64,000 nt of DNA. Origin: Eubacteriales bacterium. GTDB taxonomy: Bacteria > Bacillota > Clostridia > Oscillospirales > CAG-272. The position numbers were made by a program, and so were the translations under genes. Position 1 is the stretch's first letter; every line of letters starts with the position of its first letter. The stretch covers positions 12,477 through 76,476 of the forward strand of contig JAZOSN010000032.1 in NCBI GenBank assembly GCA_045657105.1. Reading direction: 5' to 3'. This document shows, piece by piece, positions 3,252-35,141 of this stretch. Under the pieces are notes generated by a model. That model did no database searches. It was given only the letters and a program-made list of their open reading frames with translations, and was not told where the DNA came from.

Positions 3252-3265
3252 GCGTTACTGAAAAA

Positions 3266-4557: not shown

Positions 4558-4567
4558 TTACATCAAA

Positions 4568-4596: not shown

Positions 4597-4604
4597 TCTT
4601 ACAC

Positions 4605-4633: not shown

Positions 4634-4663
4634 CAAACAAAAGCACAAAAAGAGGGAAGTACA

Positions 4664-19764: not shown

Positions 19765-19816
19765 TATGTCTATGTTATACTGTTATTGTAAAAAACAATT
19801 ATGGAGGATACACACC

Positions 19817-20533
19817 ATGCCTACACCCATCATTTCTACGTTCATTGCCTATTGCGAAACCGAACTCAATCTTCATGACAAGCTTATGGTACAAAAGCTC
19901 ACCGATCCCAATGAAACTTTCTATAAGTCCTTACCTGTATGTATTATTGATGCTGTATTTTCGATTGGCGTTAAATATCAGTCAGTTGAAAAAGCCGAAA
20001 AAACATTTATTGAGTATTTTAATCTCAATATTTCGAGAACACTTCCTATTGTAAACGAATACACGATCAATGATTTTATCAGAGACATGAACGCTTTTGC
20101 TTCATTCGAAGACGCAGCTGTAATTGGCTTCAATAACAGGCAAAGAACATCTTCCGTTAACGGCATTTTGAAGGCGGAAGCGTGCTATCGCGTTGCAGAG
20201 GTGTTCAAAAAGCATAACATCAATACTTTGGAGGATTTTAATAAGTATGCAAATAAGCCTATGCTTGATGCTGATATTCTTAAAGTAAGAGGGCAAGGCA
20301 GCGGAATTATGCTCAAATACCTTTACATGCTTGCGGGCGATGCAAACGAAGTAAAGCCTGATAGACACATGGTTAATTTTATGAAAAAAGTATTTCCTCA
20401 TTTGACCATGTCGACCAAAGACCACCCCGAAATCAAAAAGATTATTGAAGAAACCGTGTTGGAGCTGAAGCCGAAATATCCTCAGCTTACCGAGCGTTTT
20501 CTTGATGTTCTTATTTGGGATCACATGCGTTAA
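19817..20533 (+). CDS. hypothetical protein with a possible helix-hairpin-helix (HhH-GPD-like) segment
   Basis: GGAGGA RBS before the ATG at 19817. VRGQGSGIMLKYLYMLAGDANEVKPDRHMVNFM resembles the HhH-plus-Asp motif of HhH-GPD proteins (weak, by eye). Confidence 0.5.
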   Translation: MPTPIISTFIAYCETELNLHDKLMVQKLTDPNETFYKSLPVCIIDAVFSIGVKYQSVEKAEKTFIEYFNLNISRTLPIVNEYTINDFIRDMNAFASFEDAAVIGFNNRQRTSSVNGILKAEACYRVAEVFKKHNINTLEDFNKYANKPMLDADILKVRGQGSGIMLKYLYMLAGDANEVKPDRHMVNFMKKVFPHLTMSTKDHPEIKKIIEETVLELKPKYPQLTERFLDVLIWDHMR

Positions 20534-20545
20534 GGAGACACCAAT

Positions 20546-21055
20546 ATGGAAGCCCCAAAACCCCCACTTCTCGTTTACAGAGAAAAGATGTCAGAAGTAC
20601 ATACCCCCGAAGAGATCAAGGCAGCGTTCGACGAAAGCCACTATGCCGTATGCTTTAACTACGATCGTGGTCATGGGCGAGCTAAGCACGAATTGTTCGC
20701 GGCAATATGGGAGGTCAATCCCGATGCGATCATTACCGAAGCGGATCTATGCATTATGGCAGTTGAGCCCATCGTGTGGCGTGATCAGCTCCTGCTGATC
20801 GACAAAAACGGCACCAAGGAAACGGCAAATACGATTGCGAAATTCATGGCGGAATCGGGCATCATTTCTTATGAATACCGCATTGTCGACGAGGCGGGCA
20901 TTAAGGTGTGCTTCGGCTCGATTGACGTAAGAAAAGAATCCCCTGCAGTGCGCTTCAAGTGCAATCTGCTCAATGACGGCAACAAGTTACTTTTGACCGC
21001 AAGGCATATGACAAAAGCGGATAGAGAGAAATTAAAACTGAATAAGGAGAATTGA
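20546..21055 (+). CDS. hypothetical protein
   Basis: AAGGAG RBS, tightly packed behind the previous gene; no recognisable motif. Confidence 0.5.
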   Translation: MEAPKPPLLVYREKMSEVHTPEEIKAAFDESHYAVCFNYDRGHGRAKHELFAAIWEVNPDAIITEADLCIMAVEPIVWRDQLLLIDKNGTKETANTIAKFMAESGIISYEYRIVDEAGIKVCFGSIDVRKESPAVRFKCNLLNDGNKLLLTARHMTKADREKLKLNKEN

Positions 21056-21056
21056 A

Positions 21057-21350
21057 ATGACACCGACGCTTAAAAATTATTTAAACAACAACAGATGTTA
21101 TATCGAAAAAGAAGAATTTGACAAGCTGATTTGCCGTGAGGTAATTGAAAACGGCTGGCTTAACGAGTTGCTCGACTTTCTTTATGAATGCGGGGCATCG
21201 GTTTCAACAGAAGTTATCACAAAACAACTAATCGAATTTTATGTGGCAAATAAGGTTTCAAACAACAAAGAAAATGTCGAAGCAAAAATTAGATATTTGC
21301 TCAACAAACATCAAATTATGCTTTTCAAAACTATTCTGGACGAAAATTAG
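21057..21350 (+). CDS. hypothetical protein
   Basis: AAGGAG RBS; the start is 1 nt after the upstream stop; no recognisable motif. Confidence 0.5.
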   Translation: MTPTLKNYLNNNRCYIEKEEFDKLICREVIENGWLNELLDFLYECGASVSTEVITKQLIEFYVANKVSNNKENVEAKIRYLLNKHQIMLFKTILDEN

Positions 21351-21434
21351 TAAGAACAAGCCTTCCGTATAATTCACGAGGGACGAAATCGCGGTCGTTT
21401 ACAACAGCTATATCAAACGAGAAAGGTAAAAACG

Positions 21435-22220
21435 ATGACTGAGTCTAAAGATTTCAAAATTTTCACACTTACATATTCCGGAAAATATACCGGAACGGAT
21501 GAAGAGGTCGTGATTCCCGATGGGGTTAATGTCATAAGTGCCGGTGCCTTTGAGGGAAACAAATCGATAAAAAGCGTTGTCATGCCCAATACCGTTACTT
21601 GCATTGATCCTCGCGCTTTTTGTGGTTGTTCTTTCCTTGAAAAGATCGTGCTTTCGGACAATCTGAAATTTATAGAACCGAGTGCATTCGAAGATTGTAT
21701 CAGCCTTTCTCAGGTTAATCTTCCAAGCAGTCTTAAAGCAATCGGTGCCGGCGCTTTTGAGAATAGCGGGCTCACAAATATTGCTTTTCCTGAAAATGTT
21801 AAGATAATGCCATTTGCTTTTAAAGGTTGTTCGCGCATTGAAGAACTCTATGTGCCATCCGGTGTTTCTTTATCTTCCGATGCGTTTAAAGATTGTAAGA
21901 AATTAACCAAGGTCTGTTTTGAACATGGCACATGTTCCTTAGGCTATGGTTCTTTTGCACATTGCAGTAATCTTACAACGGTGTTGCTTCCTGACGGGGT
22001 TACACGCATTGGTGATAATTCATTCTATTTGTGTGATTCGCTCAAAAAAATATATATTCCTTATACCGTTACCTCTATCGGGCGCTCGTCGTTCTATAGA
22101 ATAGGCAAAAAGAACAAGCTGACAATTCAAGCACCGAAAGGCTCGTATGCAATAAAATACGCCAAGAAAATGCATTTCAAATACGAATATGTCGAAGAGA
22201 ATCCATATGTAAATGGGTAA
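21435..22220 (+). CDS. BspA-type leucine-rich repeat (LRR_5) protein, no signal peptide
   Basis: Repeated units of about 23 aa of the form IP..V..IG..AF..C..L..I. Confidence 0.75.
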   Translation: MTESKDFKIFTLTYSGKYTGTDEEVVIPDGVNVISAGAFEGNKSIKSVVMPNTVTCIDPRAFCGCSFLEKIVLSDNLKFIEPSAFEDCISLSQVNLPSSLKAIGAGAFENSGLTNIAFPENVKIMPFAFKGCSRIEELYVPSGVSLSSDAFKDCKKLTKVCFEHGTCSLGYGSFAHCSNLTTVLLPDGVTRIGDNSFYLCDSLKKIYIPYTVTSIGRSSFYRIGKKNKLTIQAPKGSYAIKYAKKMHFKYEYVEENPYVNG

Positions 22221-22234
22221 AATTTAGAGAACAA

Positions 22235-22268
22235 GCCCTCCGCAATTTTGCGGAGGGCCTGTTCGTTT
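22235..22268. terminator. bidirectional terminator between convergent island genes
   Basis: GCCCTCCGCA-ATTT-TGCGGAGGGC hairpin followed by a T-rich tail. Confidence 0.75.
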
Positions 22269-22270
22269 GA

Positions 22271-23086
22271 TTATCTTGGTCTATAAGCACCACAATTTAG
22301 GGAATTATATTTTGCTGTAATCGAACATTTTGCACTGTTTACACAGTGGCTACATTTATCCAATGCTGCGTGTTCTTGTTTCCTTCGAGCCCATACTTCT
22401 TCCAAATCACGGCGCCTTTGTGCGTGTTGTGCTCGCACGTCCTCTATTCTTCGCCTTTCTGCTTCTTCTTTACGAGCGCGTTCTTCTTGTTTTCGCATTT
22501 CTTCATCATGCTTAAATCTTGCCTCACGATCTCGTTTCAAGACCTCTTCATATTCCGCCGCATCATTTGATGAAGACAACTCTTGTGTTCTATAGGAATA
22601 AGAGGAATAAGAATTCGAGGAATTACCGTCCCCATACGCCTTATCTAAATATTCCATATACTGCTCAAAGCTATCCTCTGTGATTTTTCTTTGTTCCCAG
22701 GCGTCTTTATGGAGTTTTTCCAAAGGAGCTTCAATCGGTTTCATCTCCATATCTATTTTGTTACAAAACGTCTCGTACTCTTTCCGATTCGCCTCCATTT
22801 CATCCAGCACGGCTTTTATGGCGGAATCGTCTTCAATCGCGGCTTCCAAGGGCTTGCTTCCGTTTTTGCGTTCATGGCGTATCTTTTCCTCAAGACGATC
22901 CACTGCTTGATTTCGGAATTCGGACTGCTTTTTTTCAAACTCGTCGGTCTTTTCCTTTTTATTTTTCTTCAACTCACTGAGTCTCTTTAACAGTGAACTA
23001 ATTTTTGCTTTTATTCGCTCTTCCTTTTTCTCCGATTCGTGCCAGTTCTTTTCGTAAATTTCTACCATCTCATAGATGTCTGCCAT
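22271..23086 (-). CDS. K/E-rich coiled-coil protein with a C-terminal cysteine cluster (hypothetical)
   Basis: GGGAGGA RBS before the ATG at 23086; long charged heptad-like sequence; C-terminus CSHCVNSAKCSITAKYNSLNCGAY. Confidence 0.6.
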   Translation of the reverse strand: MADIYEMVEIYEKNWHESEKKEERIKAKISSLLKRLSELKKNKKEKTDEFEKKQSEFRNQAVDRLEEKIRHERKNGSKPLEAAIEDDSAIKAVLDEMEANRKEYETFCNKIDMEMKPIEAPLEKLHKDAWEQRKITEDSFEQYMEYLDKAYGDGNSSNSYSSYSYRTQELSSSNDAAEYEEVLKRDREARFKHDEEMRKQEERARKEEAERRRIEDVRAQHAQRRRDLEEVWARRKQEHAALDKCSHCVNSAKCSITAKYNSLNCGAYRPR

Positions 23087-23106
23087 CTTTTTTCCTCCCA
23101 TTTTTG

Positions 23107-25185
23107 TTACGGTTGAACGTCTCCGTCGCTACAGTGGATAGTCTTGCCAAGCGTTCCGCCGCCTGAATCTTTTTCCACCTGTGCCCACTGAGCAACCGTT
23201 CCTTCGTAATGAATCTCTCCGTCAATACTGTTCAATCCATACGTTACGATACGTTTGAGTGATAGTGGAAGGATCAATTTATCCAAAGCATCGCAATTTG
23301 AAAATGCGCTTCTGCCAATGCTTTCGATGTTTGGAGATAAAACTAATTTCTCTAACTTTTTGCATCCGCTGAAAGCATAAGCTCCGATACTTGTTACAGT
23401 GTCGGGCATAACAATTTCCAAAACCTCTGTACATCCCTCAAACATGTAATCATCTATCTCGGTTATTCCCGCGGGAAGAACAATTTTGGTAAGACCGTAT
23501 TTTGCGGCATTTTTATAATCTCCGCGTTGAGCGTAATTATATGCTTTCAAAATCGGCAGGTAGTTAACGTCGTATTCACTCGTGGTATATCCCATATCAC
23601 TGAGCAGCTCATAAGCGGCTTTGTAGTTGCCGCTATCAGCGTATTCAATCGACATCGCCTCTACTTCATCGATAATGGCGGTCATGATGTCTTTGCTGTC
23701 CTTATAATCCATGATGTCGTAAAAGGCATAATAGGCGTCTGAATAGCGCTTGTTTTGATACATCGCTTTGGCTTGAATATATTTTTCTTCTATATCCTGT
23801 GAGAGCATTGCATTTTCGCATTGCTCTATGTAATCTTGACTGTCTTTATAATCAATAATTGCTTCAAATTTCCCAATCGCATCGGAAAAATGTCCGGATA
23901 GGAATAAAGACACTGCTTCTCGGTAAATGGCTTCCAGCTTTTCGTTTTCAAGGGCTTGTTCACACAGAAGAATATATTCTGCACTGTCTTTATAGTTTCT
24001 GATCAGATCGAAAGCGGTAAGTGCTTCCTCAAAATTACCGCTTTCATAAAGTGCTATCGCAGATCGATACCGCTCCTCAGCTGTTGGCTCATTGTTGTTA
24101 TTCTCTGAGTTTTCTCCCAAGGACAGGACTTTCATGAGTCTGCTGTCGGGATACTCCTTTCTTCCGTGTCCGTCATAGCTAATCGCGCTTATCTTAAAGG
24201 TTGCAGAAAGCTCCTTTGCTGTTGCGTAATAAAGCGTCAAAACTTCTTCGCTTGATCTTCTGTCGATATTTAGAGTAAATACGGTGCTGTCTTTGGATAA
24301 TATATCGCCTGACAAGGTTACGATAGATGAATCTAACAAATTACCATTTGCGTCATATATATTTAAATCGCCCTTTATCTGTGTAACATCTTTATACTTT
24401 TCATTGGTTACCTTGATCTTAAATGCAGTAACATATCCGTCTACATATATGGATCTTTCATCAGATTCGCATTTTTCGACAATAGAAATATGAATATCTT
24501 TACAAGTAGAATCAACATGATTGGCACGAATTGTTCCCAAAGAAAAACAAACGCTTACAATTACAACACAAGAAATCAAACATCCCCAAAGAGCGGGTTT
24601 GTTTGTCCTTTCCGAATCGCCAAATATTGCATAATAAATATATCCCGTTGCAACCAAAAGCAATCCTATCCAGAATAACGCCGATATCGGACGCAATGTG
24701 ATCAAAAGTCTTATTGCGCAAGCAGTGGCACAGCACCAGCCAAAGGACACCACGCCGAATCCTATCACTTCGTGATAGGATTGGATTGTGTCAGACAACG
24801 ACAATTCGTAAGTATAGCCGGTATAACCGCGTTTTTTAAACAGTTGATTTAATTTAGCTCTCAGCTTAAATGATGTAGATTTGCCTACATTCATAAGTGT
24901 GACATAAAGATCATATATCTCCTTGGTTTTCTCGGTAACCTCATAGTTTTCAAGAAAATAAATTAAATCAAGAAGCTGATCTGCTGTGCCATTGTCTTGA
25001 TCGATATGTATTTTTTTGATAGCAAACACAATAGCCGCTATGCACGCACAGCACAATGAAATAATGACAATCGCAGCGTTTCCAAAAGGGATATTATCGT
25101 GATTGATGGAAAATAACAAACTCAATATTCCGCATAATATTGTTGATATCACAATAGATATTTGACCCGAGAACTTATTTTTCAT
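23107..25185 (-). CDS. multi-pass membrane protein with repeated xYKDS helical repeats and a C-terminal BspA-type LRR
   Basis: N-terminal TM helices; three repeats ending in YKDS(A/Q/K); C-terminal LRR_5-like units (ITEIDDYMFEGC..., VTSIGAYAFSGC..., IESIGRSAFSNC...). Start placed at 25185 behind an AAAGGAG RBS. Confidence 0.7.
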   Translation of the reverse strand: MKNKFSGQISIVISTILCGILSLLFSINHDNIPFGNAAIVIISLCCACIAAIVFAIKKIHIDQDNGTADQLLDLIYFLENYEVTEKTKEIYDLYVTLMNVGKSTSFKLRAKLNQLFKKRGYTGYTYELSLSDTIQSYHEVIGFGVVSFGWCCATACAIRLLITLRPISALFWIGLLLVATGYIYYAIFGDSERTNKPALWGCLISCVVIVSVCFSLGTIRANHVDSTCKDIHISIVEKCESDERSIYVDGYVTAFKIKVTNEKYKDVTQIKGDLNIYDANGNLLDSSIVTLSGDILSKDSTVFTLNIDRRSSEEVLTLYYATAKELSATFKISAISYDGHGRKEYPDSRLMKVLSLGENSENNNNEPTAEERYRSAIALYESGNFEEALTAFDLIRNYKDSAEYILLCEQALENEKLEAIYREAVSLFLSGHFSDAIGKFEAIIDYKDSQDYIEQCENAMLSQDIEEKYIQAKAMYQNKRYSDAYYAFYDIMDYKDSKDIMTAIIDEVEAMSIEYADSGNYKAAYELLSDMGYTTSEYDVNYLPILKAYNYAQRGDYKNAAKYGLTKIVLPAGITEIDDYMFEGCTEVLEIVMPDTVTSIGAYAFSGCKKLEKLVLSPNIESIGRSAFSNCDALDKLILPLSLKRIVTYGLNSIDGEIHYEGTVAQWAQVEKDSGGGTLGKTIHCSDGDVQP

Positions 25186-25273
25186 AACAAACAAGCTCCT
25201 TTCCGAAATGTATACAGAAATTATACCACATTTTGAATGTCTTTTCAACAGTTATTAGTTATCCAAACTGCTA

Positions 25274-26353
25274 TCAATTTGTTTTAAACAGAGAGGAATA
25301 ATAGACCTGATACCAATTAAGAATAATGGAATATTTCAATTCCAACACCGCAAGAGCCTTTGTTGACATATAATGCGTTTTTCCGATAAATCCGCAAAAC
25401 CAATCGTCAAGACCAAGCGTTGAAAGCGTTTGATTGGTGTAATTGTCCATTCCATGTTCAAGGTAATAGCCACACCGAGCTTTGTTTGCTGCTTCATAGG
25501 CAAAGCCCATATCGTAAAAGTAGCAATCTTTCATCGCGTCGCGGATGGCCATAAACACCTCGTCGCGCGTGGCGGGGATATCGGATAGAGAGCAAACGCC
25601 GTCTGCTATCAGATGCTCCGCGTTCTGCGTCCAAGTGTTAGTGCCGTGGGAAAGGCCAATCAGCTTCAAAAGCTCGTGATACGTTTGTGGATAAGTGAGC
25701 GCAATCATCTGCTTAATTACTTTCTCACCGCCAATACCTGCTAATTTCTCAAAATTTCCCGTCAAAAGTCGGTGCTTGACCTCGCGGTCGTTCAAGTCAA
25801 TGTCATCCATACAAACTCCCGTAGCCTTTTCGCGTCGCTTGCAAATGTTGGTCGTATATAACAGCGATTTTTGATAATGTGAGAAGGTCGCCTCGGACAG
25901 CGCAAGATAACTTTCGTCGGTCATATCTGCGACTCTGAGCTTTTGGGCATAGGGTAGATAGGTTTCAAAGGGAATGTCAAAGCCGTCGGCTTTCATTCTT
26001 TCGCCGCACGCGCAGGTGTGGTCACGCAGATCGAATACACATTTGCCGTTCAACCATTCCACTGTCTTGCATTTGGGGCAATAGTAGTGCGCGGGGAGCG
26101 GATTTTCGTCTGTCGCACCAAGCAGATATGCCACAAGGCAGGAGGCAACCGTGTTTTTGACAACCATTTGTTCATTCGCTTGCTTTACTTCGGCACGGAG
26201 CCTGAAAAGATCGTAAAAGTATTTTCCAACCTCGTATTGCATAAAGGCTTGTTTTTCGCTATAAAAGCGGTTAACGATACACAGATCAGGCATATCACCG
26301 TAAAGCTCAAATATGCGTTTGTACGCTCTATCCCAGATTTCTTTTTCGGTCAT
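25274..26353 (-). CDS. shortened PolC-like protein (PHP-domain Zn-finger segment plus downstream helical segment); probably not a polymerase
   Basis: ENPLPAHYYCPKCKTVEW, CACGERMKADGFDIPFETYLPY and IGLSHGTNTWTQNAEHLIADGVCSLSDIPATRDEVF parallel PolC segments recalled from memory (NPLPPHYVCPNCK, DIPFETFLGF, SGLSHGTDVWLGNAQELI...CTLSEVIGCRDDIM). At 359 aa it is far shorter than PolC. Confidence 0.6.
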   Translation of the reverse strand: MTEKEIWDRAYKRIFELYGDMPDLCIVNRFYSEKQAFMQYEVGKYFYDLFRLRAEVKQANEQMVVKNTVASCLVAYLLGATDENPLPAHYYCPKCKTVEWLNGKCVFDLRDHTCACGERMKADGFDIPFETYLPYAQKLRVADMTDESYLALSEATFSHYQKSLLYTTNICKRREKATGVCMDDIDLNDREVKHRLLTGNFEKLAGIGGEKVIKQMIALTYPQTYHELLKLIGLSHGTNTWTQNAEHLIADGVCSLSDIPATRDEVFMAIRDAMKDCYFYDMGFAYEAANKARCGYYLEHGMDNYTNQTLSTLGLDDWFCGFIGKTHYMSTKALAVLELKYSIILNWYQVYYSSLFKTN

Positions 26354-27339
26354 ATTTCAATCCCCGCAATTCTTTTTCCTTCTTTGGTATAATTCAAAGA
26401 TCCGTATATGTTCCTTGCCTCGTTCTCACAAAGCATAATTCTTTGCGCGCCAAGCAAGAGAGGGAGGTCGATTTCATCTTTGAGGTAGCGGCTAATTGGG
26501 ATGAGTAGTCGTTCCTCGTCGCAAAGCTCGCTACGCACATACTCCAAATCCATATAATTGTGAATGCACTCGTGATATGCCACACTGTCACGGTCAATAA
26601 AATATCCGTATGCCGTCATGTCGCTGCCATCTGTCATCGGACGTTCACCCTCGGTACAAGTAGACGTGAGCACGAACAGATCTGCAAAGGTGGTGGGGCG
26701 CGTATATTTTCCAAGTACGGTTTTTAAAATATCCCCTTTTTTGAACGGTGTCGGGAAGGAAAACCACATATTTCGGAATACCTCTTGGAAAATTTCTGTA
26801 TACTTCACGTCAGAAAGATAACGGCTTTCATCAACTCGCACGATTTCCTTTTCAAGATTGAAACGAACGAAAATCTTTATATCCACCTTTCCAATATAAG
26901 TCTTCACGAATTCTATGAAATTTGGCTGCGGTATATCAATATCATTAACTTTCATAGAAGTTACAGAGAACGAATATGCCTCTTCAAAGGTGTGAAAGAG
27001 TGTAGTCTCCTCATACCAATTATCATCAAAATACTCTCGATAGGAATATACGGCATTCGGCTCTTTCTGAAAAAATTCTTGAATCAAATAATTTTCAATT
27101 TTCATATATCTTCTCAAAAAACGATGAAGCAATCGTTGCGGAAGATTAAAACGCCCTGCGGGAATGACGCAATCTTCAGAATTATCAAGAATATTTAGCC
27201 ATGCCGTATGCTTTTCCTCAAGCGTATGGTTTTTGCTCTGCCACACGAGCCATGCGGATTCAAGTGCAGTGGGTTCGTAGCCGATCTTTTCCCAATGCGC
27301 ACGAATGTCTTGCGAGTTAATAAAATCATAAATCTTCAT
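26350..27339 (-). CDS. hypothetical protein
   Basis: Start placed at the ATG at 27339 behind an AAGGAAAA RBS, 13 nt after the upstream stop; the stop overlaps the next start (ATGA-type overlap at 26350-26353). Confidence 0.55.
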   Translation of the reverse strand: MKIYDFINSQDIRAHWEKIGYEPTALESAWLVWQSKNHTLEEKHTAWLNILDNSEDCVIPAGRFNLPQRLLHRFLRRYMKIENYLIQEFFQKEPNAVYSYREYFDDNWYEETTLFHTFEEAYSFSVTSMKVNDIDIPQPNFIEFVKTYIGKVDIKIFVRFNLEKEIVRVDESRYLSDVKYTEIFQEVFRNMWFSFPTPFKKGDILKTVLGKYTRPTTFADLFVLTSTCTEGERPMTDGSDMTAYGYFIDRDSVAYHECIHNYMDLEYVRSELCDEERLLIPISRYLKDEIDLPLLLGAQRIMLCENEARNIYGSLNYTKEGKRIAGIEI

Positions 27340-27352
27340 TTTTAATTTTCCT

Positions 27353-27733
27353 TTATTTTTGACGCAATAATAAATAATCATAATGTGCAGATCCGTCGTT
27401 AACGATTCGAATTGAAAGATTTTTTCCAAAAATATTGAATTCCGATTCAATCAATTCTATCAGCTTTGGCTCATTTAAGGTGGGATTAAGATAAATCGTG
27501 ACTTTCTTCTTTTTGATCTCCACACGCCCACGCGGATAATAATTATACAGATGTCCGTTCGTGATGTTGCGATAAAGCTTCGCCCACTCTGCTTTGTGAT
27601 TGAAATTTTCACCGGACTTTGATGAATATTCAACCGCTTCAAGTGCATTTCCATATTCATCGCAAGCAACCTTCCGTGTAATCAACCTTCCTTGCTGAGG
27701 ATCGCACCAAAATATTCCTTTATATAATTCCAT
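27353..27733 (-). CDS. hypothetical protein (126 aa)
   Basis: An ORF in operon context; features GIFWCDP and YNYYPRGRVEI segments that I cannot assign to a family. Confidence 0.5.
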   Translation of the reverse strand: MELYKGIFWCDPQQGRLITRKVACDEYGNALEAVEYSSKSGENFNHKAEWAKLYRNITNGHLYNYYPRGRVEIKKKKVTIYLNPTLNEPKLIELIESEFNIFGKNLSIRIVNDGSAHYDYLLLRQK

Positions 27734-27796
27734 ATCTTTTCATACACCTTCTCACATTTTTTCATTGATATTGAACCTTGAATCAGCATCGTAATA

Positions 27797-28420
27797 CTAA
27801 AGATCTTCAAAGCGAATTTTGTTCATTTCGGCACATTTTTCCGCACACGAGCCGCTGTGACCCTTGACGACGAGATCGGGGTGTACATACCCTGAAATCT
27901 GACGCGGCATCGGGCTGCCGTCGTTAAGTGTTTTGCCGAATGCCGCGGGTTCAAAAACTGTATTTTCCCCTAAAACGGTTATTTCGCGAAGCTTTTCACA
28001 TATTCCGAAAGCATTTCCTCGCACAAGCTCAAGCGACTTGGGAAGTGTAATTTTGCGAATCGAAGAGCCTGAAAACGCACCCACGTCAATCACAAGAATA
28101 CCCTCGGGAATCGTAAGTGAGTCAAGTGTCGCATTGTACCCAAAGGTACACGCTCCGATAACCTCGACAGAACCGTCGCTTGGAATGGTACATTGGTTAA
28201 GTCCCAAGACAAGTGTCCTTGTGTCTCGGTGAATGAGACAACCGTTCGTGTATGAAAAATCGGTATTCCCCTCAGCTACTTTGATCGTTTCAACACCGTC
28301 AAAGGCATACGCCATAAGCAAGGTTTCCGAAACACTTTCCGCTTCTGCGGGGATGGTCAGAACACCATCGCCGTCATTCAAAATATCGATAATAACTCCC
28401 GATTCAATTACTGTTTTCAT
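27797..28420 (-). CDS. BspA-type leucine-rich repeat (LRR_5) protein, cytoplasmic
   Basis: Repeats such as VEVIGACTFGYNATLDSLTIPEGILVIDVGAFSGSSIRKITLPKSLELVRGNAFGICEKL; no signal peptide. Confidence 0.7.
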   Translation of the reverse strand: MKTVIESGVIIDILNDGDGVLTIPAEAESVSETLLMAYAFDGVETIKVAEGNTDFSYTNGCLIHRDTRTLVLGLNQCTIPSDGSVEVIGACTFGYNATLDSLTIPEGILVIDVGAFSGSSIRKITLPKSLELVRGNAFGICEKLREITVLGENTVFEPAAFGKTLNDGSPMPRQISGYVHPDLVVKGHSGSCAEKCAEMNKIRFEDL

Positions 28421-28489
28421 TTTTATATCTCCTTTACAGATTTAATTATCAAAAATGTATTTGTATGCGTTAAAGAATAAGGGATTGCT

Positions 28490-29092
28490 TTATTTCCATC
28501 TTTCATCCGCCCAATCTATTGCTTCGTTTCTGCCCATATCAAGCAGACATGCTCGGTATCCATCTGCATACTGTGCAGGAATGATCTTAACTACTTTGCT
28601 TCCGTTTCCGTCATAGAAGCTGACACTTACCGTATCTTCCGTTTCTTGTCTTATGATAAAGCCCGAGGTTATCTTTCTCCTTTCATATCCCTCGATCGGC
28701 GTAACGGAATAATAGGAATACAGTCCTTCCTCAGAGCAATCCCATGTATCTACGATCGTTCCGTTTATTACTGCACTCCAGTGCCCGGACATCGAAATAA
28801 TATATCGTCCCTTGGGATGGATTTCACAAAATTCATGGGCACTTACACGAGAACCGTCATCCTTTTTAGGTATAGCTACTCTTGGGAATCCCAAAACTTT
28901 TTCAACATAGCTTCTTGGGTTTCCAGGAGAATTGAAGTCCTTTGCTCCCGTTATCTTTTTGTGAGCATTAAGACCTCGTTGCACATCCATATAGTCCATT
29001 CCGCAGGTGACTGAAATTGCTCGTTTTACACAGTCATCAACAAGCAAATGCCTCGGATGAGCGTTGTAGTATCTGAAGTTACTGTTCTCCAT
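28490..29092 (-). CDS. hypothetical protein with a possible Cys-His-Asp (papain-like) triad
   Basis: DDCVKRAISVTCG near the N-terminus and SGHWSAVINGTIVDTWD about 85 aa later resemble papain-like/C39-like peptidase cores (by eye only). Confidence 0.45.
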   Translation of the reverse strand: MENSNFRYYNAHPRHLLVDDCVKRAISVTCGMDYMDVQRGLNAHKKITGAKDFNSPGNPRSYVEKVLGFPRVAIPKKDDGSRVSAHEFCEIHPKGRYIISMSGHWSAVINGTIVDTWDCSEEGLYSYYSVTPIEGYERRKITSGFIIRQETEDTVSVSFYDGNGSKVVKIIPAQYADGYRACLLDMGRNEAIDWADERWK

Positions 29093-29095
29093 ATT

Positions 29096-29356
29096 TTAGC
29101 TCCTTTCTTTCATAATGCGGTTATATTCATCACGGTATTCTCGCAGTGTAGCACCGTTTGCGGCAGAATAGTGATCCTCTGGGAATCCGTCGTATTCCCA
29201 GCCGCAGTGTCCGCAGATGTAGTAATTATCGAGTGTTTTTTGCCCGCAAACAGGGCAAAGTATAACGGTGTAAATATCGTCTACGACGGTCCCGAGCTCA
29301 GGTAACTCGCATCCGACAAATTCCCCGCGTATTGCGGCGTAAATGTTTTCTTTCAT
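29096..29356 (-). CDS. CPCC-family cysteine-rich (zinc-ribbon) protein
   Basis: CPVCGQKTLDNYYICGHCGWEYDGFPED matches the Cys_rich_CPCC pattern. Confidence 0.7.
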   Translation of the reverse strand: MKENIYAAIRGEFVGCELPELGTVVDDIYTVILCPVCGQKTLDNYYICGHCGWEYDGFPEDHYSAANGATLREYRDEYNRIMKERS

Positions 29357-29365
29357 AAACTCTCC

Positions 29366-29692
29366 TTAAAATCTGTATTTGGCAGCAGTCTGCGCAAGCC
29401 ATTCTTCTGCTTTTCTTACACCGCTTTCCGAGCTTTCAAATTCTGCTCGTTCAAAATCGGTTTTGTTTCCGCCAAGATGCCAAGGCTGGATTATATAGCT
29501 TTCGGCAATCAAACGAAATGTGCTTTCTTCGCCGCTTGATATGTCCACGTAAACGCGGTAGTTAAACGTTCGTGCACTCACACACCCTTGATCGGGAAGT
29601 GTGCCCATAGAGCCCGAGTAGGTGTTTGTAACAAAACGCCCTTCGTGCTTGCTTACAAGCCAATGATAATGCGTCAGATCAATCTTCGACAT
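29366..29692 (-). CDS. hypothetical protein
   Basis: GGAGG RBS 6 nt before the ATG at 29692; overlaps the 3' end of the upstream gene by 14 nt (translational coupling). Confidence 0.5.
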   Translation of the reverse strand: MSKIDLTHYHWLVSKHEGRFVTNTYSGSMGTLPDQGCVSARTFNYRVYVDISSGEESTFRLIAESYIIQPWHLGGNKTDFERAEFESSESGVRKAEEWLAQTAAKYRF

Positions 29693-30335
29693 AGTTAACC
29701 TCCACATTTATGACTTGTACCTTGTTGTGCTTCAACTTTTGGGTGGGATAATTCGGGCATACAGCAATAAATACCTGTCTGCCGAGTCTTGCAAGTTCGT
29801 CAATATAAGGAGAAACGTCTACAGATTCATCAATACGATCAAAAAAGTGGTAAATAAATATAGGACGAGAATCACCGTTGTTCGTATCTATATTTAATGT
29901 TGTTAAGAATTTTTCGAAAGACAATAGAACTTTTTCTGACATCGGCAGGCACGAGGTAGATGAACGCATATCCTCATCGGCGAAAACGTGGCAGGTGTTA
30001 ATGTTACGGGCTCGCCTTTTTTTCTCGTACTCTTGAGTATCAGGCAGAGAAAAAAATCTTTTTTCTTTCGTGAAGTTAACACCCATAGTGTGTTCTGCAT
30101 CCGCCGAGTAGATATAGCAAATGTCATACTCCTTTTTGTCTATTTCAACACACCCGTGGATAATAGATTCGTGAGGTATGTGGATACCTGTGGCTTGATC
30201 CCCTCTGTACGTTCCCGTCATTGCCTCTATAAATAGCATATATTTGTCGCTGTTAGTTCCCTTAAAGCACATAATCGGTGTTTCAAGGGTTATCTCTCCG
30301 CTGCTATCATTAAAATCAATTCGTTTTACCTTCAT
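29679..30335 (-). CDS. hypothetical protein, possible degenerate ABC/SMC-like ATPase
   Basis: The N-terminal strand-loop FKGTNSDKYMLFIEAM sits where a Walker A would be but lacks GK(S/T). The C-terminal PIFIYHFFDRIDESVD...LARLGRQVFIAV resembles Walker B/D-loop. Confidence 0.45.
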   Translation of the reverse strand: MKVKRIDFNDSSGEITLETPIMCFKGTNSDKYMLFIEAMTGTYRGDQATGIHIPHESIIHGCVEIDKKEYDICYIYSADAEHTMGVNFTKEKRFFSLPDTQEYEKKRRARNINTCHVFADEDMRSSTSCLPMSEKVLLSFEKFLTTLNIDTNNGDSRPIFIYHFFDRIDESVDVSPYIDELARLGRQVFIAVCPNYPTQKLKHNKVQVINVEVNYVED

Positions 30336-30396
30336 ACCGAATTCCTTTCTTTACATGAAACTGTGGTGGTTGTAAATTCAGTATAACATATAGCAT

Positions 30397-30412
30397 GTGC
30401 GAAAAAACCACC
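30397..30412 (-). promoter_or_regulatory. operator-like repeat (copy 2, GGTGG-T6-CGCAC in gene sense)
   Basis: Lies 11 nt upstream of the minus-strand TATACT (extended -10 TGTTATACT = 30380-30388), directly in front of the 30335<-25274 operon. Confidence 0.5.
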
Positions 30413-30415: not shown

Positions 30416-30447
30416 AAAAAAGCAAGAGCATAAAACTCTTGCTTTTT
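30416..30447 (-). terminator. intrinsic terminator after the WYL regulator gene
   Basis: AGCAAGAG/CTCTTGCT stem flanked by an A-run and a T-run, 10 nt after the stop at 30457. Confidence 0.75.
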
Positions 30448-30456: not shown

Positions 30457-32028
30457 TTACGTGTCTATTCTGAAATCAATTTCGGGGATACACTTTTTTA
30501 ACTTCTCGATATCGATACAGTCGGCAGTTTCTTGATCAACTCGCAAAATTTGAAGATTTTTAGCTTCATATATTGGCGAAAGATCCAACTTTTGCGCACC
30601 GTGCAGTTGTAATCTTGTAAGGGCGTTGCATTTATTAATGGGTGAAAGATCTGCGGTTCCGGGTTTTATAATATCAAGCTCTTTCAAGCGCGGAAGATCT
30701 TTGATAAATGAAATATCAATTTTATCTCCGCCGCCAATATACACCTTCTCGCTGTTGATATAATCTGACAGCATATTCCAATCGGTAACGACCGATGCGT
30801 CGTAAATTTTAATAGTTTTAACAGCTTCCACTCTTTCCGATAGAGACATCGCCTTGTGTTTTTTGAAATTACTTAATCCTACATTTAGCATTTTACCGAT
30901 CAGTAAACAGTTTTTAGATATTGTAGTATTACACGAGTAAAATTCTATATCTTGGTCGTTTTGAATATATCGAATCTTCATCATCCGCGCCATGCTTTGC
31001 AATCTATATCGCAGATCTTGTGGCTCGATTACATCAACACTATCTGCATGGTGTAGTGCAAAGCGGAAAACATCTTCGAAATTCGCGCTGAACGTGATCT
31101 CTCGAAAAACAGAATTTGTTTTTGTAATATTGACCCTCGTGCCAAACTCATCAATAACATCACCGATGCCGCTCTCGGTTGCGCGCAACTTTATATATCC
31201 GATTTCGCCTTCTTGCATATAGGGGTGCTGAAGCAAATATTCACGAACATCTTTGTAAAGCTCGGATTCAGCCTTTGAATCAAGGATAGTAATCTCCGTC
31301 ATTTTGTCAATTCTGTAGTGTCTTAACTTTTTTTCCCCGAGTATCGTTCCGATTACATAATATCTACCATGCGATGTAACTATGTGATACGGATTGAAAG
31401 TGATTTTATCATTTGAAATTCGGTGCAGCTCCTTGTCGGATGCATATTGACATTCATAGAATGAAACCTGTCTGCGTACTCCACGTGAATGGGCTACATT
31501 TTCTTCGGTTTTAAAATTTAGAGCTTCACTAAGCGCATTAAGATTATCCGCAAAAGTATTACTTTCAGAAGCAAAAGCCTTGCTTTCACTGAATTCTCCA
31601 ACGTTGCTTGCGTTTTTATTTCTGGAAAATCTGGTCAGCTTTTCGACAAGCTTTTTGGAGGCTTCTGCATCAAGATTTTTATCAAATTTTACATGATCGA
31701 TCAAAAGCAAAAGTTCGCCTTTGGAGAAACGTTCTTTTTGTGCAAGGTAAATGTCGGTCATAACACCCTTAGTGTTCTTACGTTTTTCCTTACTGTATTT
31801 AACGGCATAAGGATTATTACCTTTTTCGTCACAAAGCTCTTTGAATTTTTCAATATTCTCGCGAACGGTCTTTGGCGTTACTTCTATAGCAAATTTTTCT
31901 TTAAGTCTGTTTGCTATTTCGGTACATGTCATTTTTTTGATCTTTCCGGTTCTTATATCTAGTCGTCCGGTTTCTTTTTGCAGTATATTGAGTATTCCTA
32001 CTGCAACCATTCTTTTATCACTGCTCAT
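30457..32028 (-). CDS. HTH-WYL domain transcriptional regulator with a C-terminal leucine-rich-repeat extension
   Basis: AGGAGG RBS before the ATG at 32028. N-terminal wHTH-like MTCTEIANRLKEKF..., WYL-like core GRYYVIGTILGEKKLRHYRIDKM, and C-terminal LRR units (LKELDII..., LTRLQLHG..., LQILRV). Confidence 0.7.
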   Translation of the reverse strand: MSSDKRMVAVGILNILQKETGRLDIRTGKIKKMTCTEIANRLKEKFAIEVTPKTVRENIEKFKELCDEKGNNPYAVKYSKEKRKNTKGVMTDIYLAQKERFSKGELLLLIDHVKFDKNLDAEASKKLVEKLTRFSRNKNASNVGEFSESKAFASESNTFADNLNALSEALNFKTEENVAHSRGVRRQVSFYECQYASDKELHRISNDKITFNPYHIVTSHGRYYVIGTILGEKKLRHYRIDKMTEITILDSKAESELYKDVREYLLQHPYMQEGEIGYIKLRATESGIGDVIDEFGTRVNITKTNSVFREITFSANFEDVFRFALHHADSVDVIEPQDLRYRLQSMARMMKIRYIQNDQDIEFYSCNTTISKNCLLIGKMLNVGLSNFKKHKAMSLSERVEAVKTIKIYDASVVTDWNMLSDYINSEKVYIGGGDKIDISFIKDLPRLKELDIIKPGTADLSPINKCNALTRLQLHGAQKLDLSPIYEAKNLQILRVDQETADCIDIEKLKKCIPEIDFRIDT

Positions 32029-32088: not shown

Positions 32089-32330
32089 ATTGATATTATA
32101 TCACAGATCTTTTAATTTGTCAAATTCCTGAAGCGCCATGCGGAGGGTGTTGCCACTGTAATATTTGACTTTAAGTGAAGGAGATCGTCACAGTTTGATA
32201 AGGACGTTTTCTACATATTAGACGATGTTGAAATACGGGTTCCCCCTTATAGGGTAATTATTGAATTTGGGTTGAAAACGTTCTTTTTTGATATGATTCC
32301 GTCCAAATCCGTATTGATTACGTAAGTAGA

Positions 32331-32380
32331 ACTGCTCTAAATCGTTCTAATCGATGATAATCGTTTCTAAACGCTTCTCA
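32331..32380. repeat. five tandem 10-bp units (consensus aTCGtTCTAA)
   Basis: ACTGCTCTAA ATCGTTCTAA TCGATGATAA TCGTTTCTAA ACGCTTCTCA, in exact 10-nt register. Confidence 0.6.
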
Positions 32381-32553
32381 ATAATATATCCTTTAAAAAT
32401 CGTCTGTCCTTTAGAAATGATAGAGTTTCGAGAAGCTTTTGCGGTCATTTTCTTTTGGAAATAACTATCGTTTTCAACGCAAAATCATTTTAATATGACA
32501 AGAAGAATGACTTTCATTCAGAGACGCAACCGAGGGTAGAAAATCCCTGTTCT

Positions 32554-32780
32554 TCATTTCTGAAAGAGGGTCATTTTCATTTCGTAAAGAGCATCATCAC
32601 TCTCGAAAAGAACATCATCCGTCATATTGAAACGAGAGCACTTCATCATATCGAAAGGGCGGCGGCATCATTTCAAAACGAAAGTTTTGCCTTCCATTAA
32701 TCTAAAAAGAAATCCAAAATAAATCTGAATGACTCATTTCAAAATGATAGATGATATATCATCTTGAAATGAAAGATACG
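32554..32780. repeat. iteron-like array of about 8 degenerate units of 17-28 bp (core TCAT..TC..GAAAG)
   Basis: Units start at 32554, 32571, 32594, 32615, 32643, 32668, 32734 and 32759. Each has TCAT(T/C) followed by a (T)GAAA(G) core. Confidence 0.55.
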
Positions 32781-32799
32781 AACAATTCCCATAAAAGAC

Positions 32800-32833
32800 G
32801 GTCCGTACCGAGAGGTGCGGACCATATTTTTTT
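32800..32833 (+). terminator. possible intrinsic terminator at the end of the ORF-free segment
   Basis: GGTCCG/CGGACC stem with a 12-nt loop, then ATATTTTTTT. The stem is short, so this is tentative. Confidence 0.4.
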
Positions 32834-33076
32834 GTGAAAAATTTTTTGTATTTTTCTTGAAATACCCCCTTTTTGCAAAGCATTTATTATTTACAAAAGC
32901 AAAATTGGAGGTGAGAGGGATGTATAGAACTTCGTGACTAAAATTTTTGTAGGGAAGAACAAATAACGAAAAAACGCTGCCCGATTAAAAAAGCAGTTTC
33001 GGGCAATAATAGAAAGGAAGGATTTTACTATGATGAATTGTGTTTTGATGCAGAGGACTCGTGAAGGTGAGGTGCT

Positions 33077-33314: not shown

Positions 33315-33343
33315 TTGAAAAAGTTAAATCTTTGTGATATAAT
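33315..33343 (+). promoter_or_regulatory. sigma-A type promoter for the recombinase gene
   Basis: TTGAAA (33315-33320), a 17-nt spacer and TATAAT (33338-33343) with an upstream TGTGA extended -10. Confidence 0.55.
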
Positions 33344-33383
33344 GAAACAAGGTAATGATATAACGAACTTTTGGAGGAAAGAT

Positions 33384-35141
33384 ATGGATATACATAATAT
33401 TCGTCAGGAAATTCGATATAAGTCTATATTCGATGTGCCTATGCGCGTGACCTACTATGCCCGCGTTTCATCGGAGTCGGACGAGCAGTTAAATTCTCTG
33501 GGCAACCAGATCAATTATTACGAAGACTTTATCAAGAAGAATCCCGCTTGGGTGTTTATCAGCGGATATATCGACGAGGGTCTGTCCGGTATTTCCACGA
33601 AAAAGCGCGAGAACTTCAACCGCATGATCGAAGATGCGGCACAAGATAAGTTTGACCTTATTATCACAAAGGAAATCTCCCGTTTTGCCCGTAACACGCT
33701 GGACTCCATTCAGTACACCCGCCAGCTTCTCGGCTACGGCGTAGGCGTGTTTTTTCAGAACGATAATATCAACACTCTCGACGAGGATTCCGAGCTGAGA
33801 CTCTCGATTATGTCCTCTATCGCGCAGGACGAGCTGAGAAAGCTTTCCAGCCGCGTGAAATTCGGTCATCAGCAGGCGATCAAGCAGAATGTGGTTCTCG
33901 GCAACAATCGCATCTTCGGCTACAAGAAGAACAACAAACGCCTTGTGATTGACGAGGATGAAGCTCCGATGGTCAGAGAATTGTTCGAGCTTTATGCCAC
34001 CGACAACTACAGCATGAAGCAGATCGAAAAGATCTTCTGGGACAAGGGCTACCGCAATCACAACGGCAAGAAGATAGCACACTCCACCATGGCAAATATG
34101 ATCGCCAACCCCAAATACAAGGGCTACTACGTGGGCAACAAAGTGAAGGTCGTTGATATGTTCACCAAAAAGCAGAAGTTCCTGCCGCCCGAGGAATGGG
34201 TCATGTTCAAGGATGAAAGCGGTGAGATCGTACCGGCAATTGTTAGCGAAGAGCTTTGGGAAAGCGCCAATGTAGTTCTACGCCGCAGAAGCGAGGACGT
34301 GAAGAACCGTCAAGGCATTTGCAATCACGCCAATCTGCTTACGGGAAAGCTTTTCTGTACCGACTGCGGTACGCCTTATTACCGCAGAGAGTCCAAGGAC
34401 AAAGAGGGCAACAAAAACAGCAAGTGGGTATGCTCAAACAAAATCAACAGCGGCAAGGATGCCTGCGCTTCGTTCCCCGTTTACGAGGAGGAGATCAAGC
34501 CGGTCCTGTTCGAGGTGTTTAGGGACACCAAGGACAGCTCCGCCGCAATGATGCTTGAATACGAAAAGCTTTATCTGTCTATGACTGCAAACGGCAAGCT
34601 TGACAAAATGATCGCCAAGCGGGAGGGAATCATTGATCTTGCAAACAAGAAAAAGAGCGCGCTTCTGAAACTCGTTGCCGAAGGGAATATCAACGGCAAG
34701 GACTTTAAGGAAATGACCGAAGCGTGCAACAAAGAGATCCACGATGCCGAGGCAGAGCTGATTGAACTGAAAAATCAGCAGGAGTCTAGCGAGGAATTTA
34801 AGAAGCATATGGAAAAGGTGCGTGCCGTTCTCAGGGCTGCCGAGCGTGATATCGAAATGGGCGAGATTTCCAAGGATTTTATTGACACCTTTATTGATAA
34901 GATTTTTGTCACACCTTTTGAGGACAAAACCGTGGAGCTTCGCATCAAGATCTTCACCGGAGAAACCACCGAAAGATACCTCAAAAAACTCAAAGGTCGT
35001 GCTTGTATCATCACTACACCATCTGCCCGAAGCGAAGAAAATGCCGTAAATACAGGGGGCTCCGACCCTCAAAGTCGTACGGGACACACGATTAAGAAGA
35101 TGGTCGAGAAGTACGAGAACGACCTTAAAAACAACAAATAA
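33384..35141 (+). CDS. large serine recombinase (resolvase N-terminal domain, recombinase domain, zinc ribbon, coiled coil)
   Basis: GGAGGA RBS before the ATG at 33384. N-terminal RVTYYARVSSESDEQLNSLGNQ (catalytic Ser region), ITKEISRFARN, a Cys-rich CTDCGTPYYRR...WVCSNK segment, and a long coiled-coil tail. Confidence 0.9.
   Translation: MDIHNIRQEIRYKSIFDVPMRVTYYARVSSESDEQLNSLGNQINYYEDFIKKNPAWVFISGYIDEGLSGISTKKRENFNRMIEDAAQDKFDLIITKEISRFARNTLDSIQYTRQLLGYGVGVFFQNDNINTLDEDSELRLSIMSSIAQDELRKLSSRVKFGHQQAIKQNVVLGNNRIFGYKKNNKRLVIDEDEAPMVRELFELYATDNYSMKQIEKIFWDKGYRNHNGKKIAHSTMANMIANPKYKGYYVGNKVKVVDMFTKKQKFLPPEEWVMFKDESGEIVPAIVSEELWESANVVLRRRSEDVKNRQGICNHANLLTGKLFCTDCGTPYYRRESKDKEGNKNSKWVCSNKINSGKDACASFPVYEEEIKPVLFEVFRDTKDSSAAMMLEYEKLYLSMTANGKLDKMIAKREGIIDLANKKKSALLKLVAEGNINGKDFKEMTEACNKEIHDAEAELIELKNQQESSEEFKKHMEKVRAVLRAAERDIEMGEISKDFIDTFIDKIFVTPFEDKTVELRIKIFTGETTERYLKKLKGRACIITTPSARSEENAVNTGGSDPQSRTGHTIKKMVEKYENDLKNNK

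Follow-up and report, generated by a model that had tools for sequence, protein, structure and literature searches.

What is a tightly packed run of genes for, when most of its products belong to no family and it starts directly behind the terminator of a regulatory gene? The question is raised by positions 25274-30335 of a 64,000-nucleotide (nt) stretch of DNA from an Eubacteriales bacterium (GenBank assembly GCA_045657105.1, contig JAZOSN010000032.1, positions 12,477 to 76,476), to which we refer as the window. An earlier note had read these minus-strand genes as a nine-gene operon controlled by the adjacent WYL-domain regulator, and had proposed that they might form a novel system. The genes, named here P1 to P8, are one arm (arm A) of a mobile, modular, co-regulated two-operon cassette that spans ~19.75-32.1 kb of the window. 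The view that they constitute a single set holds for P1, P3, P4 and P8, which make up the core; P2 and P5-P7 occupy variable positions.

A conserved core and a variable slot

The six-frame list of open reading frames (ORFs) contains eight minus-strand ORFs inside 25274-30335. The earlier count of nine was not borne out, and only eight intervals had in fact been listed; all eight are present where they had been placed, on the minus strand and with the lengths given (Table 1). Packing is as tight as described: P1 and P2 overlap by 14 nt and P7 and P8 by 4 nt, and the intervening junctions are gaps of 9, 3, 69, 63 and 13 nt, below the upper limit of 70 nt that had been indicated. Within 30335-25274, a terminator scan of the minus strand turned up nothing convincing. 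Two co-oriented genes found 3′ of P8 precede the first strong terminator (22264-22229), and the same pair lies 3′ of P8 in two other loci, L006 and L009 (77% and 52% identity). The pair (22271-25188) is probably part of the transcription unit of P8; separate transcription is possible, given a promoter-like site at 25248-25220. Hence, the block is real, and the unit is larger than originally delimited, as both a convergent partner operon and these two downstream genes belong to it.

Conservation was examined by tblastn and ORF clustering of contigs anchored on P8, all of them from metagenome-assembled genomes (MAGs) of yak, roe deer and other gut Clostridia, Eubacteriales, Oscillospiraceae and Lachnospiraceae; the comparison comprised 18 other P8-anchored cassettes. 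Co-occurrence of the genes as a block, the test that the earlier note had put forward for its own proposal, was found in many other genomes: the order P1-(P2)-P3-P4-[slot]-P8 recurs over ~20 other Clostridia contigs, with an occupancy that varies per gene. P1 is present in 15 of the 18 cassettes, and P3 and P4 are found together in 13. When P4 was used as an independent anchor, the same families were retrieved at 38-67% identity. Examples are L127 (P1, an AAA+ protein, P3, P4, a phosphatase-like protein and a PolC-like protein), L128 (a P1::P3 fusion, P4 and a phosphatase-like protein) and L129 (P4 and a PolC-like protein). The minimal cassette, found in L096 and L097, is made of P1, P8 and a 50-amino acid (aa) protein, and L097 carries two complete mini-cassettes in tandem (638-5066). 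The description of the block as a multi-component module without known function is upheld.

Between P4 and P8 there is a variable slot, which in the window holds P5-P7. The occupants change from locus to locus: P5 is found in two of the 18 other cassettes (L002 and L004), P6 in one (L098, 64% identical), and a P7-type gene in five (among them L008 and L098, 70% and 52% identical). P2, which lies outside the slot, is present in four. A protein of 150-170 aa with an intact CX5R phosphatase motif is found in 11 of the 18 and is absent from the window. The slot of L002 contains an AAA+ ATPase and that of L001 and L098 a second PolC-like paralogue, and in the distant cassette L129 proteins of the YpsA (SLOG) and HAD_SAK_2 types (9149-10665) lie between P4 and the PolC-like gene. 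In several loci a PemK/MazF gene is located 3′ of P8. P5 had been called a leucine-rich repeat (LRR) protein, a call confirmed by LRR_5 (E = 1.6e-12). Searches with P2, P6 and P7 gave no match in Pfam, PADLOC, PHROGs, NCBIfam or PDB sequences, and the exact P7 sequence was not found in the contig index.

The genes of arm A are under purifying selection, with pairwise ratios of nonsynonymous to synonymous substitution (dN/dS) of 0.07-0.20 for P2, P3, P4, P5, P7 and P8; adjacent arm A genes with 4-nt start/stop overlaps are also observed. The cassette is horizontally mobile and is found in uncultured gut and rumen Clostridia. Its flanks vary by locus (in L004 it lies among rpoB, rpsT and iPGM), a large serine recombinase gene is found near the cassette in the window, L002, L007 and L011, and the window copy is a mosaic in which P1 is ~35% identical to the proteins of other loci and P8 73-83%.

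A possible further module is seen in L127 (10151-16378), where three genes come after the PolC-like gene; they encode a SNF2/ResIII helicase of 1209 aa, a MoxR-like AAA ATPase and a DUF2201 protein.

Products of the core genes

P8, the anchor of the cassette, is derived from the replicative polymerase PolC. Against the PolC equivalog of NCBIfam, PRK00448, it scores 152 bits (E = 1.4e-44) versus a cutoff of 873, in two partial stretches, and it matches Geobacillus PolC (PDB 3f2b) with E = 1e-31 and ~30% identity, in agreement with its earlier description as PolC-like. Only stretches 830-966 and ~1160-1300 of the PolC model are matched: residues 3-143 of P8 correspond to the first palm segment and residues 209-355 to the fingers, and the 66 aa between them replace ~185 in PolC. 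Features shared with PolC (PDB 3f2b, 9qpc) are thus the first palm segment with its Cys4 zinc finger, whose residues C92, C95, C114 and C116 are invariant in an alignment of 32 family members, and the fingers (DNA_pol3_finger, 25.6 bits versus a cutoff of 22), where the motif GLxHGTxxW is kept. In contrast, P8 has 360 aa instead of ~1440, and lacks the N-terminal, OB, PHP, exonuclease, thumb, beta-clamp-binding and HhH domains as well as the second half of the palm, where PolC has a third catalytic aspartate. In the same alignment the PDIDLNF catalytic motif is cut to a single aspartate, D143, followed by MTDES or TVPEN, and the second catalytic aspartate is missing. D972 and D974 are the catalytic pair required for activity of Enterococcus faecium PolC (PMC12592400). 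Because the paired aspartates are needed in that enzyme and only D143 is kept here, P8 is almost certainly no longer a polymerase.

Full-length P8 relatives of ~365 aa form at least 120 clusters at 90% identity, and relatives are 54-83% identical. None was detected in IMG/VR, and INPHARED and PLSDB yielded only true polC genes, at ~30% identity. The possibility that P8 might be a recent polC pseudogene fragment was considered and ruled out by its divergence from real PolC (~30%) and by purifying selection. Tandem PolC-like paralogues, ~31% identical to each other, occur inside one cassette in three loci (L001, 8872-11098; L098, 2978-5374; L097, 638-5066). A short PolC-derived family of this kind is not described in the Pol III alpha census paper.

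P1 may be a second inactivated enzyme. Alignments indicate that its N-terminus forms a beta-hairpin/loop/helix in which the Walker A site reads RGxYSD (RGxYSDLALDL) and not GxxGxGK[ST]; in the window copy, the equivalent loop is KGTNSDKYM and the lysine is absent. An LSESD motif is found ~30 residues before an invariant RPIFIYxxFDRIDE, which is followed by GRQVFIAV without a histidine. The order of these motifs matches that of the signature, the Walker B/D-loop and the H-loop of ABC/SMC ATPases, a likeness of motifs only; a common P1 variant of 188-197 aa is devoid of the signature segment. Foldseek comparison of a low-confidence model retrieved almost solely Rad50, SMC, cohesin-head and RecF structures, with E values of 2e-3 to 0.5 and a TM score of ~0.26. 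It is plausible, judging from motifs and model, that P1 is a degenerate ABC/SMC-like ATPase. ATP hydrolysis is unlikely, as both the Walker A lysine and the H-loop histidine are gone. The window carries a rare P1 variant, 31-39% identical to the common type, and only five close relatives of this variant were found among 5.8 billion proteins.

The identification of P3 as a CPCC zinc-ribbon protein was confirmed by PF14206 (Cys_rich_CPCC; 30.5 bits versus a gathering threshold of 24.5), and P3 also matches phrog_6332 (E = 3e-11). In P8-anchored loci P3 is always paired with P4. The CPCC domain is fused to the C-terminus of P1 in six homologues (P0248, P0250, P0260, P0279, P0280 and P0291), and L128 carries a natural fusion between P1 and the zinc ribbon (7244-8008).

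P4 has two domains, an N-domain (~1-135) and a small, mostly beta C-domain. Four residues of the N-domain, Cys21, His104, Asp115 and Asp118, are invariant in the family alignment, and a structure model with a high predicted local distance difference test score (pLDDT 93.6) locates Cys21 at the start of helix 21-30, His104 at the start of strand 104-109, and Asp115 at the end of strand 112-115. This placement was set against the layout of papain-like cysteine peptidases, with the cysteine at the start of a helix and the histidine and the aspartate or asparagine on consecutive beta-strands; no structural relative was found in the PDB. Support for the term “peptidase-like” used before is confined to the invariant residues and their position in the secondary structure. 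The N-domain belongs to phrog_3754 (E = 4e-21) and shows structural matches to uncharacterised phage proteins in BFVD, with E values down to 1e-10. As a gene of its own (~130 aa) it is found in 80 IMG/VR contigs where the other block genes are absent. The surroundings of P4 homologues in phages vary, with head genes as neighbours in one instance and replication genes in further ones, and give no functional clue. The phage copies thus differ from P4 in that they stand alone, in varied modules, and P4 adds a C-terminal domain.

Shared operators, the WYL protein and arm B

A 12-mer, GTTTTTTCGCAC, occurs in three exact copies in the 64 kb of the window, versus 0.03 expected, and none of 100 shuffled sequences contained three or more. 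Each copy is oriented with, and located directly 5′ of, one of three units: the WYL gene, arm A and arm B. In addition, TGTTATACT or TATAAT is found 11 nt 3′ of each operator copy. Three copies in these positions are the layout expected if one DNA-binding protein acts on its own gene and on two operons. The features that the earlier note had placed in front of the block were recovered, namely the terminator of the WYL gene directly upstream (a 13-bp stem and a U-run, z = -5.4) and operator copy 2, an exact 12-mer at 30408-30397, 11 nt 5′ of an extended -10 element. A reading of the shared motif as a sporulation-sigma promoter was rejected because the elements fit an extended -10 of the sigma-A type.

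The neighbouring regulatory gene encodes a protein with matches to Pfam WYL (E = 3e-7, above cutoff), WCX (E = 0.007) and the WYL model of PADLOC (E = 1.6e-19). The protein has an LRR-like C-terminal extension of ~150 aa (30457-31000; weak LRR_4 and internalin matches). An alternative 543-aa ORF with a GTG start would overlap the operator. Elsewhere, too, the promoters of arms A and B have motifs in common, which differ from those of the window (GCACCA-N4-TGTCGC...TGATATAAT, and TTTCAAATTTTT...CGTGTGTTATAAT), with a different protein as regulator; what is kept between loci is the design and not its components. The operator motif of the window is absent from the other loci. A different WYL protein of unrelated architecture adjoins the cassettes of L097, and most other loci have instead a ~290-aa helix-turn-helix (HTH) protein. 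Of the claim of control through WYL protein and operator, the part upheld is that in the window the block shares a sequence element with the WYL promoter; the WYL gene is not a conserved partner elsewhere.

Arm B is an operon of four plus-strand genes that converges on the block. Its families accompany arm A in most other loci, convergent to it in the window, L002, L006, L007, L011 and L013, and divergent in L127 and L129. The accompanying families include the ~290-aa HTH regulator, a larger protein of type c29, c31 or c17, proteins of ~170, ~136 and ~100 aa, and often an LRR protein. The first product of arm B in the window (238 aa) contains a motif, GQGSGI...KPDRH, that resembles HhH-GPD; it was not matched in Pfam, and it aligns with the c31-type profile (hhalign E = 0.0016, probability 16%) over the same region in which that profile aligns with DNA glycosylases. 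The c31-type proteins have a tail with a C-x5-C-x2-C-x4-C cluster of cysteines similar to those that hold iron-sulphur clusters. An HhH-GPD, DNA-glycosylase-like nature of arm B gene 1 can be considered a lead, not a result.

Several observations concern the surroundings of the cassette. The region between the MatE gene (15582-17036) and ligA (35320) has a GC content of 0.37-0.43, versus ~0.48; an integrated element of ~18 kb between these two genes is suggested. The recombinase gene abuts ligA. Its promoter (33315-33343) and the divergent promoter of the WYL gene (32095-32123) are inverted copies with 79% identity, TTGAMA-17-TGTGATATAAT. The WYL and recombinase genes are separated by a non-coding stretch of ~950 nt (32124-33076), which harbours an iteron-like cluster (32622-32769) where four of the four matches to TTTCRANATGA in the window are found within 150 nt, with 0.71 expected, and a 19-nt inverted repeat (32734-32772). 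On the other side, a plus-strand ORF (17941-18207) resembles alpha/beta-type small acid-soluble spore proteins, with an odd C-terminus; a gene for such a protein is also found just 5′ of the cassette in L004.

Table 1. Coordinates of the two-operon cassette and adjacent features in the window
Feature	Position	Strand	Description
Operator copy 3	19749-19764	+	GTGCGTTTTTTCGCAC; perfect palindrome; 12-mer at 19753-19764; before arm B
Arm B promoter	19749-19781	+	extended -10 TGT-TATACT at 19773-19781
Arm B operon	19817-22220	+	four genes, convergent on the block
Arm B gene 1	19817-20533	+	238 aa, HhH-GPD-like
Arm B gene 2	20546-21055	+	169 aa
Arm B gene 3	21057-21350	+	97 aa
Arm B gene 4	21435-22220	+	261 aa, BspA-type LRR
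Bidirectional terminator between the convergent arms	22229-22264	both	16-pair stem, 10 GC pairs
Downstream gene 2	23101-22271	-	coiled-coil protein, Cys-rich C-terminal tail
Downstream gene 1	25188-23107	-	membrane/TPR-like/LRR_5 protein
P8	26353-25274	-	359 aa; PolC-derived, probable pseudo-polymerase; cassette anchor
P7	27339-26350	-	329 aa; no family match; variable-slot occupant
P6	27733-27353	-	126 aa; no family match; variable-slot occupant
P5	28420-27797	-	207 aa; cytoplasmic BspA-type LRR; variable-slot occupant
P4	29092-28490	-	200 aa; two-domain Cys/His/Asp protein
P3	29356-29096	-	86 aa; CPCC zinc ribbon
P2	29692-29366	-	108 aa; no family match
P1	30335-29679	-	218 aa; resembles SMC/Rad50-like ABC-ATPase heads; no Walker A lysine, no H-loop histidine
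Arm A promoter	30365-30412	-	extended -10 TGT-TATACT at 30388-30380; flanked by GGTGGTT/AACCACC
Operator copy 2	30408-30397	-	12-mer exact, left half-site degenerate; before P1
WYL intrinsic terminator	30416-30447	-	13-bp stem and U-run, -16.4 kcal/mol, z = -5.4
WYL regulator	30457-32028	-	HTH-WYL-WCX, 523 aa from ATG at 32028, GGAGG ribosome-binding site
Operator copy 1	32088-32073	-	perfect palindrome GTGCG-T6-CGCAC; hairpin z = -3.4; 12-mer at 32084-32073
WYL promoter	32123-32095	-	TTGACA-17-TATAAT with TG
Large serine recombinase	33315-35141	+	Resolvase, Recombinase and Zn_ribbon_recom domains

Possible roles and relation to known systems

The interpretation that we favour, tentatively and at somewhat less than an even chance, is that the cassette is a defence-type conflict system that can be induced. 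The preference is based on five points: a fixed core is combined with a swappable slot; the occupants of the slot (MazF, AAA+, phosphatase-like and LRR proteins) are typical of such systems; a domain of P4 is phage-derived; control in the window is putatively of the WYL type; and a candidate defence gene lies next door, as the plus-strand neighbour 18402-19703 encodes an AAA_14/DUF4143 ATPase that matches the candidate single-gene system PDC-S01 (E = 2.4e-167). The recognisable domains of the cassette are all DNA-related, and two belong to inactivated enzymes.

A tentative scheme can be drawn as follows. The WYL-WCX-LRR protein would bind GTGCG-T6-CGCAC and repress its own gene, arm A and arm B, until a nucleic-acid or damage signal releases repression of the three units, as with other WYL regulators. 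P1 and P8, as dead DNA enzymes, might then form together with the zinc ribbon a non-catalytic recognition module; what it recognises could be a DNA structure or, alternatively, a foreign protein that attacks the replisome or the SMC machinery; enzyme-like partners would carry out the response after recognition. An attractive if improbable speculation goes one step further and views the cassette as a decoy-based immune sensor. The dead P8 and P1, with the zinc ribbon, would bait phage or plasmid proteins that hijack or inhibit the machinery of the replisome and of chromosome maintenance. Once a bait is engaged, effectors that can replace one another would be switched on, namely the Cys-His-Asp protein, the phosphatase-like protein, the AAA+ ATPase, MazF and the glycosylase-like arm B. 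If true, bacteria would here have their own version of guard/decoy immunity, made from pseudo-enzymes.

A number of results weigh against a defence system run by the WYL protein. The comparison of P1-P8 with the 5027 models of PADLOC (PADLOC-DB 2.0), a check that the earlier note had proposed, assigned none of the eight proteins to a system, as only noise was detected between the zinc ribbon of P3 and Cas12 (E ≥ 0.002); the proteins of arm B gave no PADLOC match either, and known defence genes are not enriched in the flanks of other loci. The adjacent WYL protein is the putative binder of the operator by virtue of its position alone. No homologue of this protein lies beside the block in other loci, and the relatives of the window protein, found in JGI metagenomes, are only 25-27% identical, lack the LRR tail and are not beside block genes. 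As for P1, searches with hidden Markov models (HMMs) against Pfam, NCBIfam and PDB gave no match, and hhalign of the P1 profile with an ABC transporter ATPase gave an insignificant probability of 0.05. The P1 structure model has a pLDDT of 52, and its poor quality is explained by the fact that only six usable homologues were available. Consequently, what survives of the “degenerate ABC/SMC-like ATPase” of the earlier note is the resemblance of motifs together with weak, consistent Foldseek matches to Rad50, SMC and RecF, with no HMM support. For the P4 model, no neighbour with an E value below 0.2 was found among PDB folds, and the P4 profile likewise had no match among PDB sequences. The alignment of the c31-type profile of arm B orthologues with AGOG/endonuclease III, which includes the hairpin-Asp motif, is marginal (E = 0.04-0.06). 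Last, all the loci come from MAGs of related Clostridia, and some of the synteny is due to common descent of a single element.

The strongest competitor, which we consider rather unlikely, is that the cassette serves a mobile element in takeover, interference or anti-defence. In this case, dominant-negative mimicry would be the task of the dead PolC and of the likewise dead SMC/Rad50-like head, which upon induction would poison or titrate the host replisome, SMC-type or ABC-ATPase-type defence complexes, or the replication of a competitor element. Pseudo-enzymes are indeed well suited for mimicry, and several findings fit this explanation: large serine recombinases and TnpV/DUF6809 transposon genes are frequently linked to the cassette, a low-GC island lies between MatE and ligA, the P4 N-domain is common in phages (80 IMG/VR loci and fold matches in BFVD), and the regulators change with the element. 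However, the cassettes of L004, L127 and L128 lie among housekeeping genes with no recombinase in view, P8 relatives are lacking in IMG/VR, INPHARED and PLSDB except for true polC at ~30%, and the cassette is not accompanied by genes for replication, transfer or packaging.

Less probable still is a chromosomal module for DNA damage or replication stress, with the dead polymerase as a checkpoint or blocker and the glycosylase-like protein engaged in repair. WYL regulators such as PafBC and DriD control damage responses in other bacteria, and the domains that can be recognised (PolC, the SMC/Rad50-like head, the zinc ribbon and HhH-GPD) are related to DNA. Distribution of the cassette is, however, patchy and horizontal-looking; its content is mosaic, its WYL regulator is not conserved, and toxin-like and phage-derived components are present.

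The earlier note had offered as an alternative an array of orphan immunity genes of polymorphic-toxin systems. In its present form, this would be a heterogeneous poly-immunity locus where every gene protects, through an immunity protein of its own, against a different polymorphic toxin, in some cases by mimicry of the toxin's target. The products are small, unrelated and cytoplasmic; the content of the P4-P8 segment is variable; and an RHS-repeat gene is found near L004 and a gene for a 1943-aa protein 5′ of the cassette of L005. LRR proteins, the only class here that is compatible with such an array, are a recognised immunity class in heterogeneous polyimmunity loci, and fusions of immunity domains are known (Zhang et al. 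2012, PMC3482391). In spite of these similarities, the order of the core is fixed down to 38-57% identity, start/stop overlaps indicate translational coupling, catalytic motifs are intact in several products (the CX5R phosphatase-like protein, the AAA+ ATPase, PemK, and Cys/His/Asp in P4), and the block is linked to, inherited with and co-regulated with a second operon. Moreover, no match to Pfam Imm, SUKH or SuFu was found (no Imm-type match at E < 0.1), nor any recognisable toxin domain among the neighbours of the window or of most loci. A poly-immunity locus must therefore be regarded as a poor candidate. Last, a chance assembly of genes that are unrelated or in decay, one of them a polC fragment, might be invoked for products that mostly lack a family and for a P8 that is only partly PolC, and is excluded by the number of full-length P8 clusters, the low dN/dS values, the divergence of P8 from real PolC, and the conserved synteny.

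If the cassette is functional, it would add two seemingly undescribed families, a 360-aa PolC-derived pseudo-polymerase and an SMC/Rad50-like head without the lysine, found fused to CPCC zinc ribbons, and a new modular architecture, in which a recognition core stays fixed, effectors are swapped in a slot and a second operon acts as partner. The cassette is also a concrete case for asking how bacteria or their mobile elements use inactivated copies of essential DNA enzymes, be it as decoys, dominant-negative inhibitors or DNA-structure sensors. With ~12 kb, a candidate regulator and an operator defined to 16 bp, the locus is tractable in experiments, and it provides a handle for discovering the function of phrog_3754, a phage family present in many viral contigs.

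When all eight proteins were compared with PADLOC, Pfam, NCBIfam and PHROGs, the only matches were CPCC, LRR_5, the PolC fragment and two PHROGs of unknown function; literature searches on CPCC, PolC decoys, PolC-like domains and the WYL-LRR combination found nothing relevant. BREX and CBASS, with BrxR and CapW respectively, are reportedly defence islands regulated by WYL proteins. The cassette resembles them in having an adjoining HTH-WYL-WCX gene, a palindrome in the promoters of this gene and of the neighbouring operons, and predicted derepression; in contrast, its genes match no BREX or CBASS model, and the regulator of the window has an extra LRR domain and is not conserved. Defence based on ABC/SMC ATPases includes Lamassu (LmuB), Wadjet (JetC), Gabija (GajA), Septu (PtuA) and PARIS (AriA). 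The putative head topology of P1, its motifs similar to the signature and Walker B, and the existence of a multi-gene cassette with enzyme-like partners are reminiscent of these systems. Differences are that P1 has only ~190-220 aa, without Walker A lysine, H-loop histidine or coiled coil, and that the cassette has no TOPRIM, HNH or Cap4 nuclease partner and no PADLOC or Pfam HMM match. With poly-immunity loci (PMC3482391) the cassette shares small, unrelated cytoplasmic proteins, LRR proteins included, and variable content; it differs from them in the absence of an adjacent toxin and of Imm matches, in the conserved order of its core, in its enzyme-like members, and in the possession of a linked second operon with shared operators. 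Its gene composition is apparently undescribed, as beyond generic domains no match was found in Pfam, NCBIfam, PHROGs (as to function), PADLOC or PDB. Proof of a defence role would place the cassette, as a new system, in a category that is already known.

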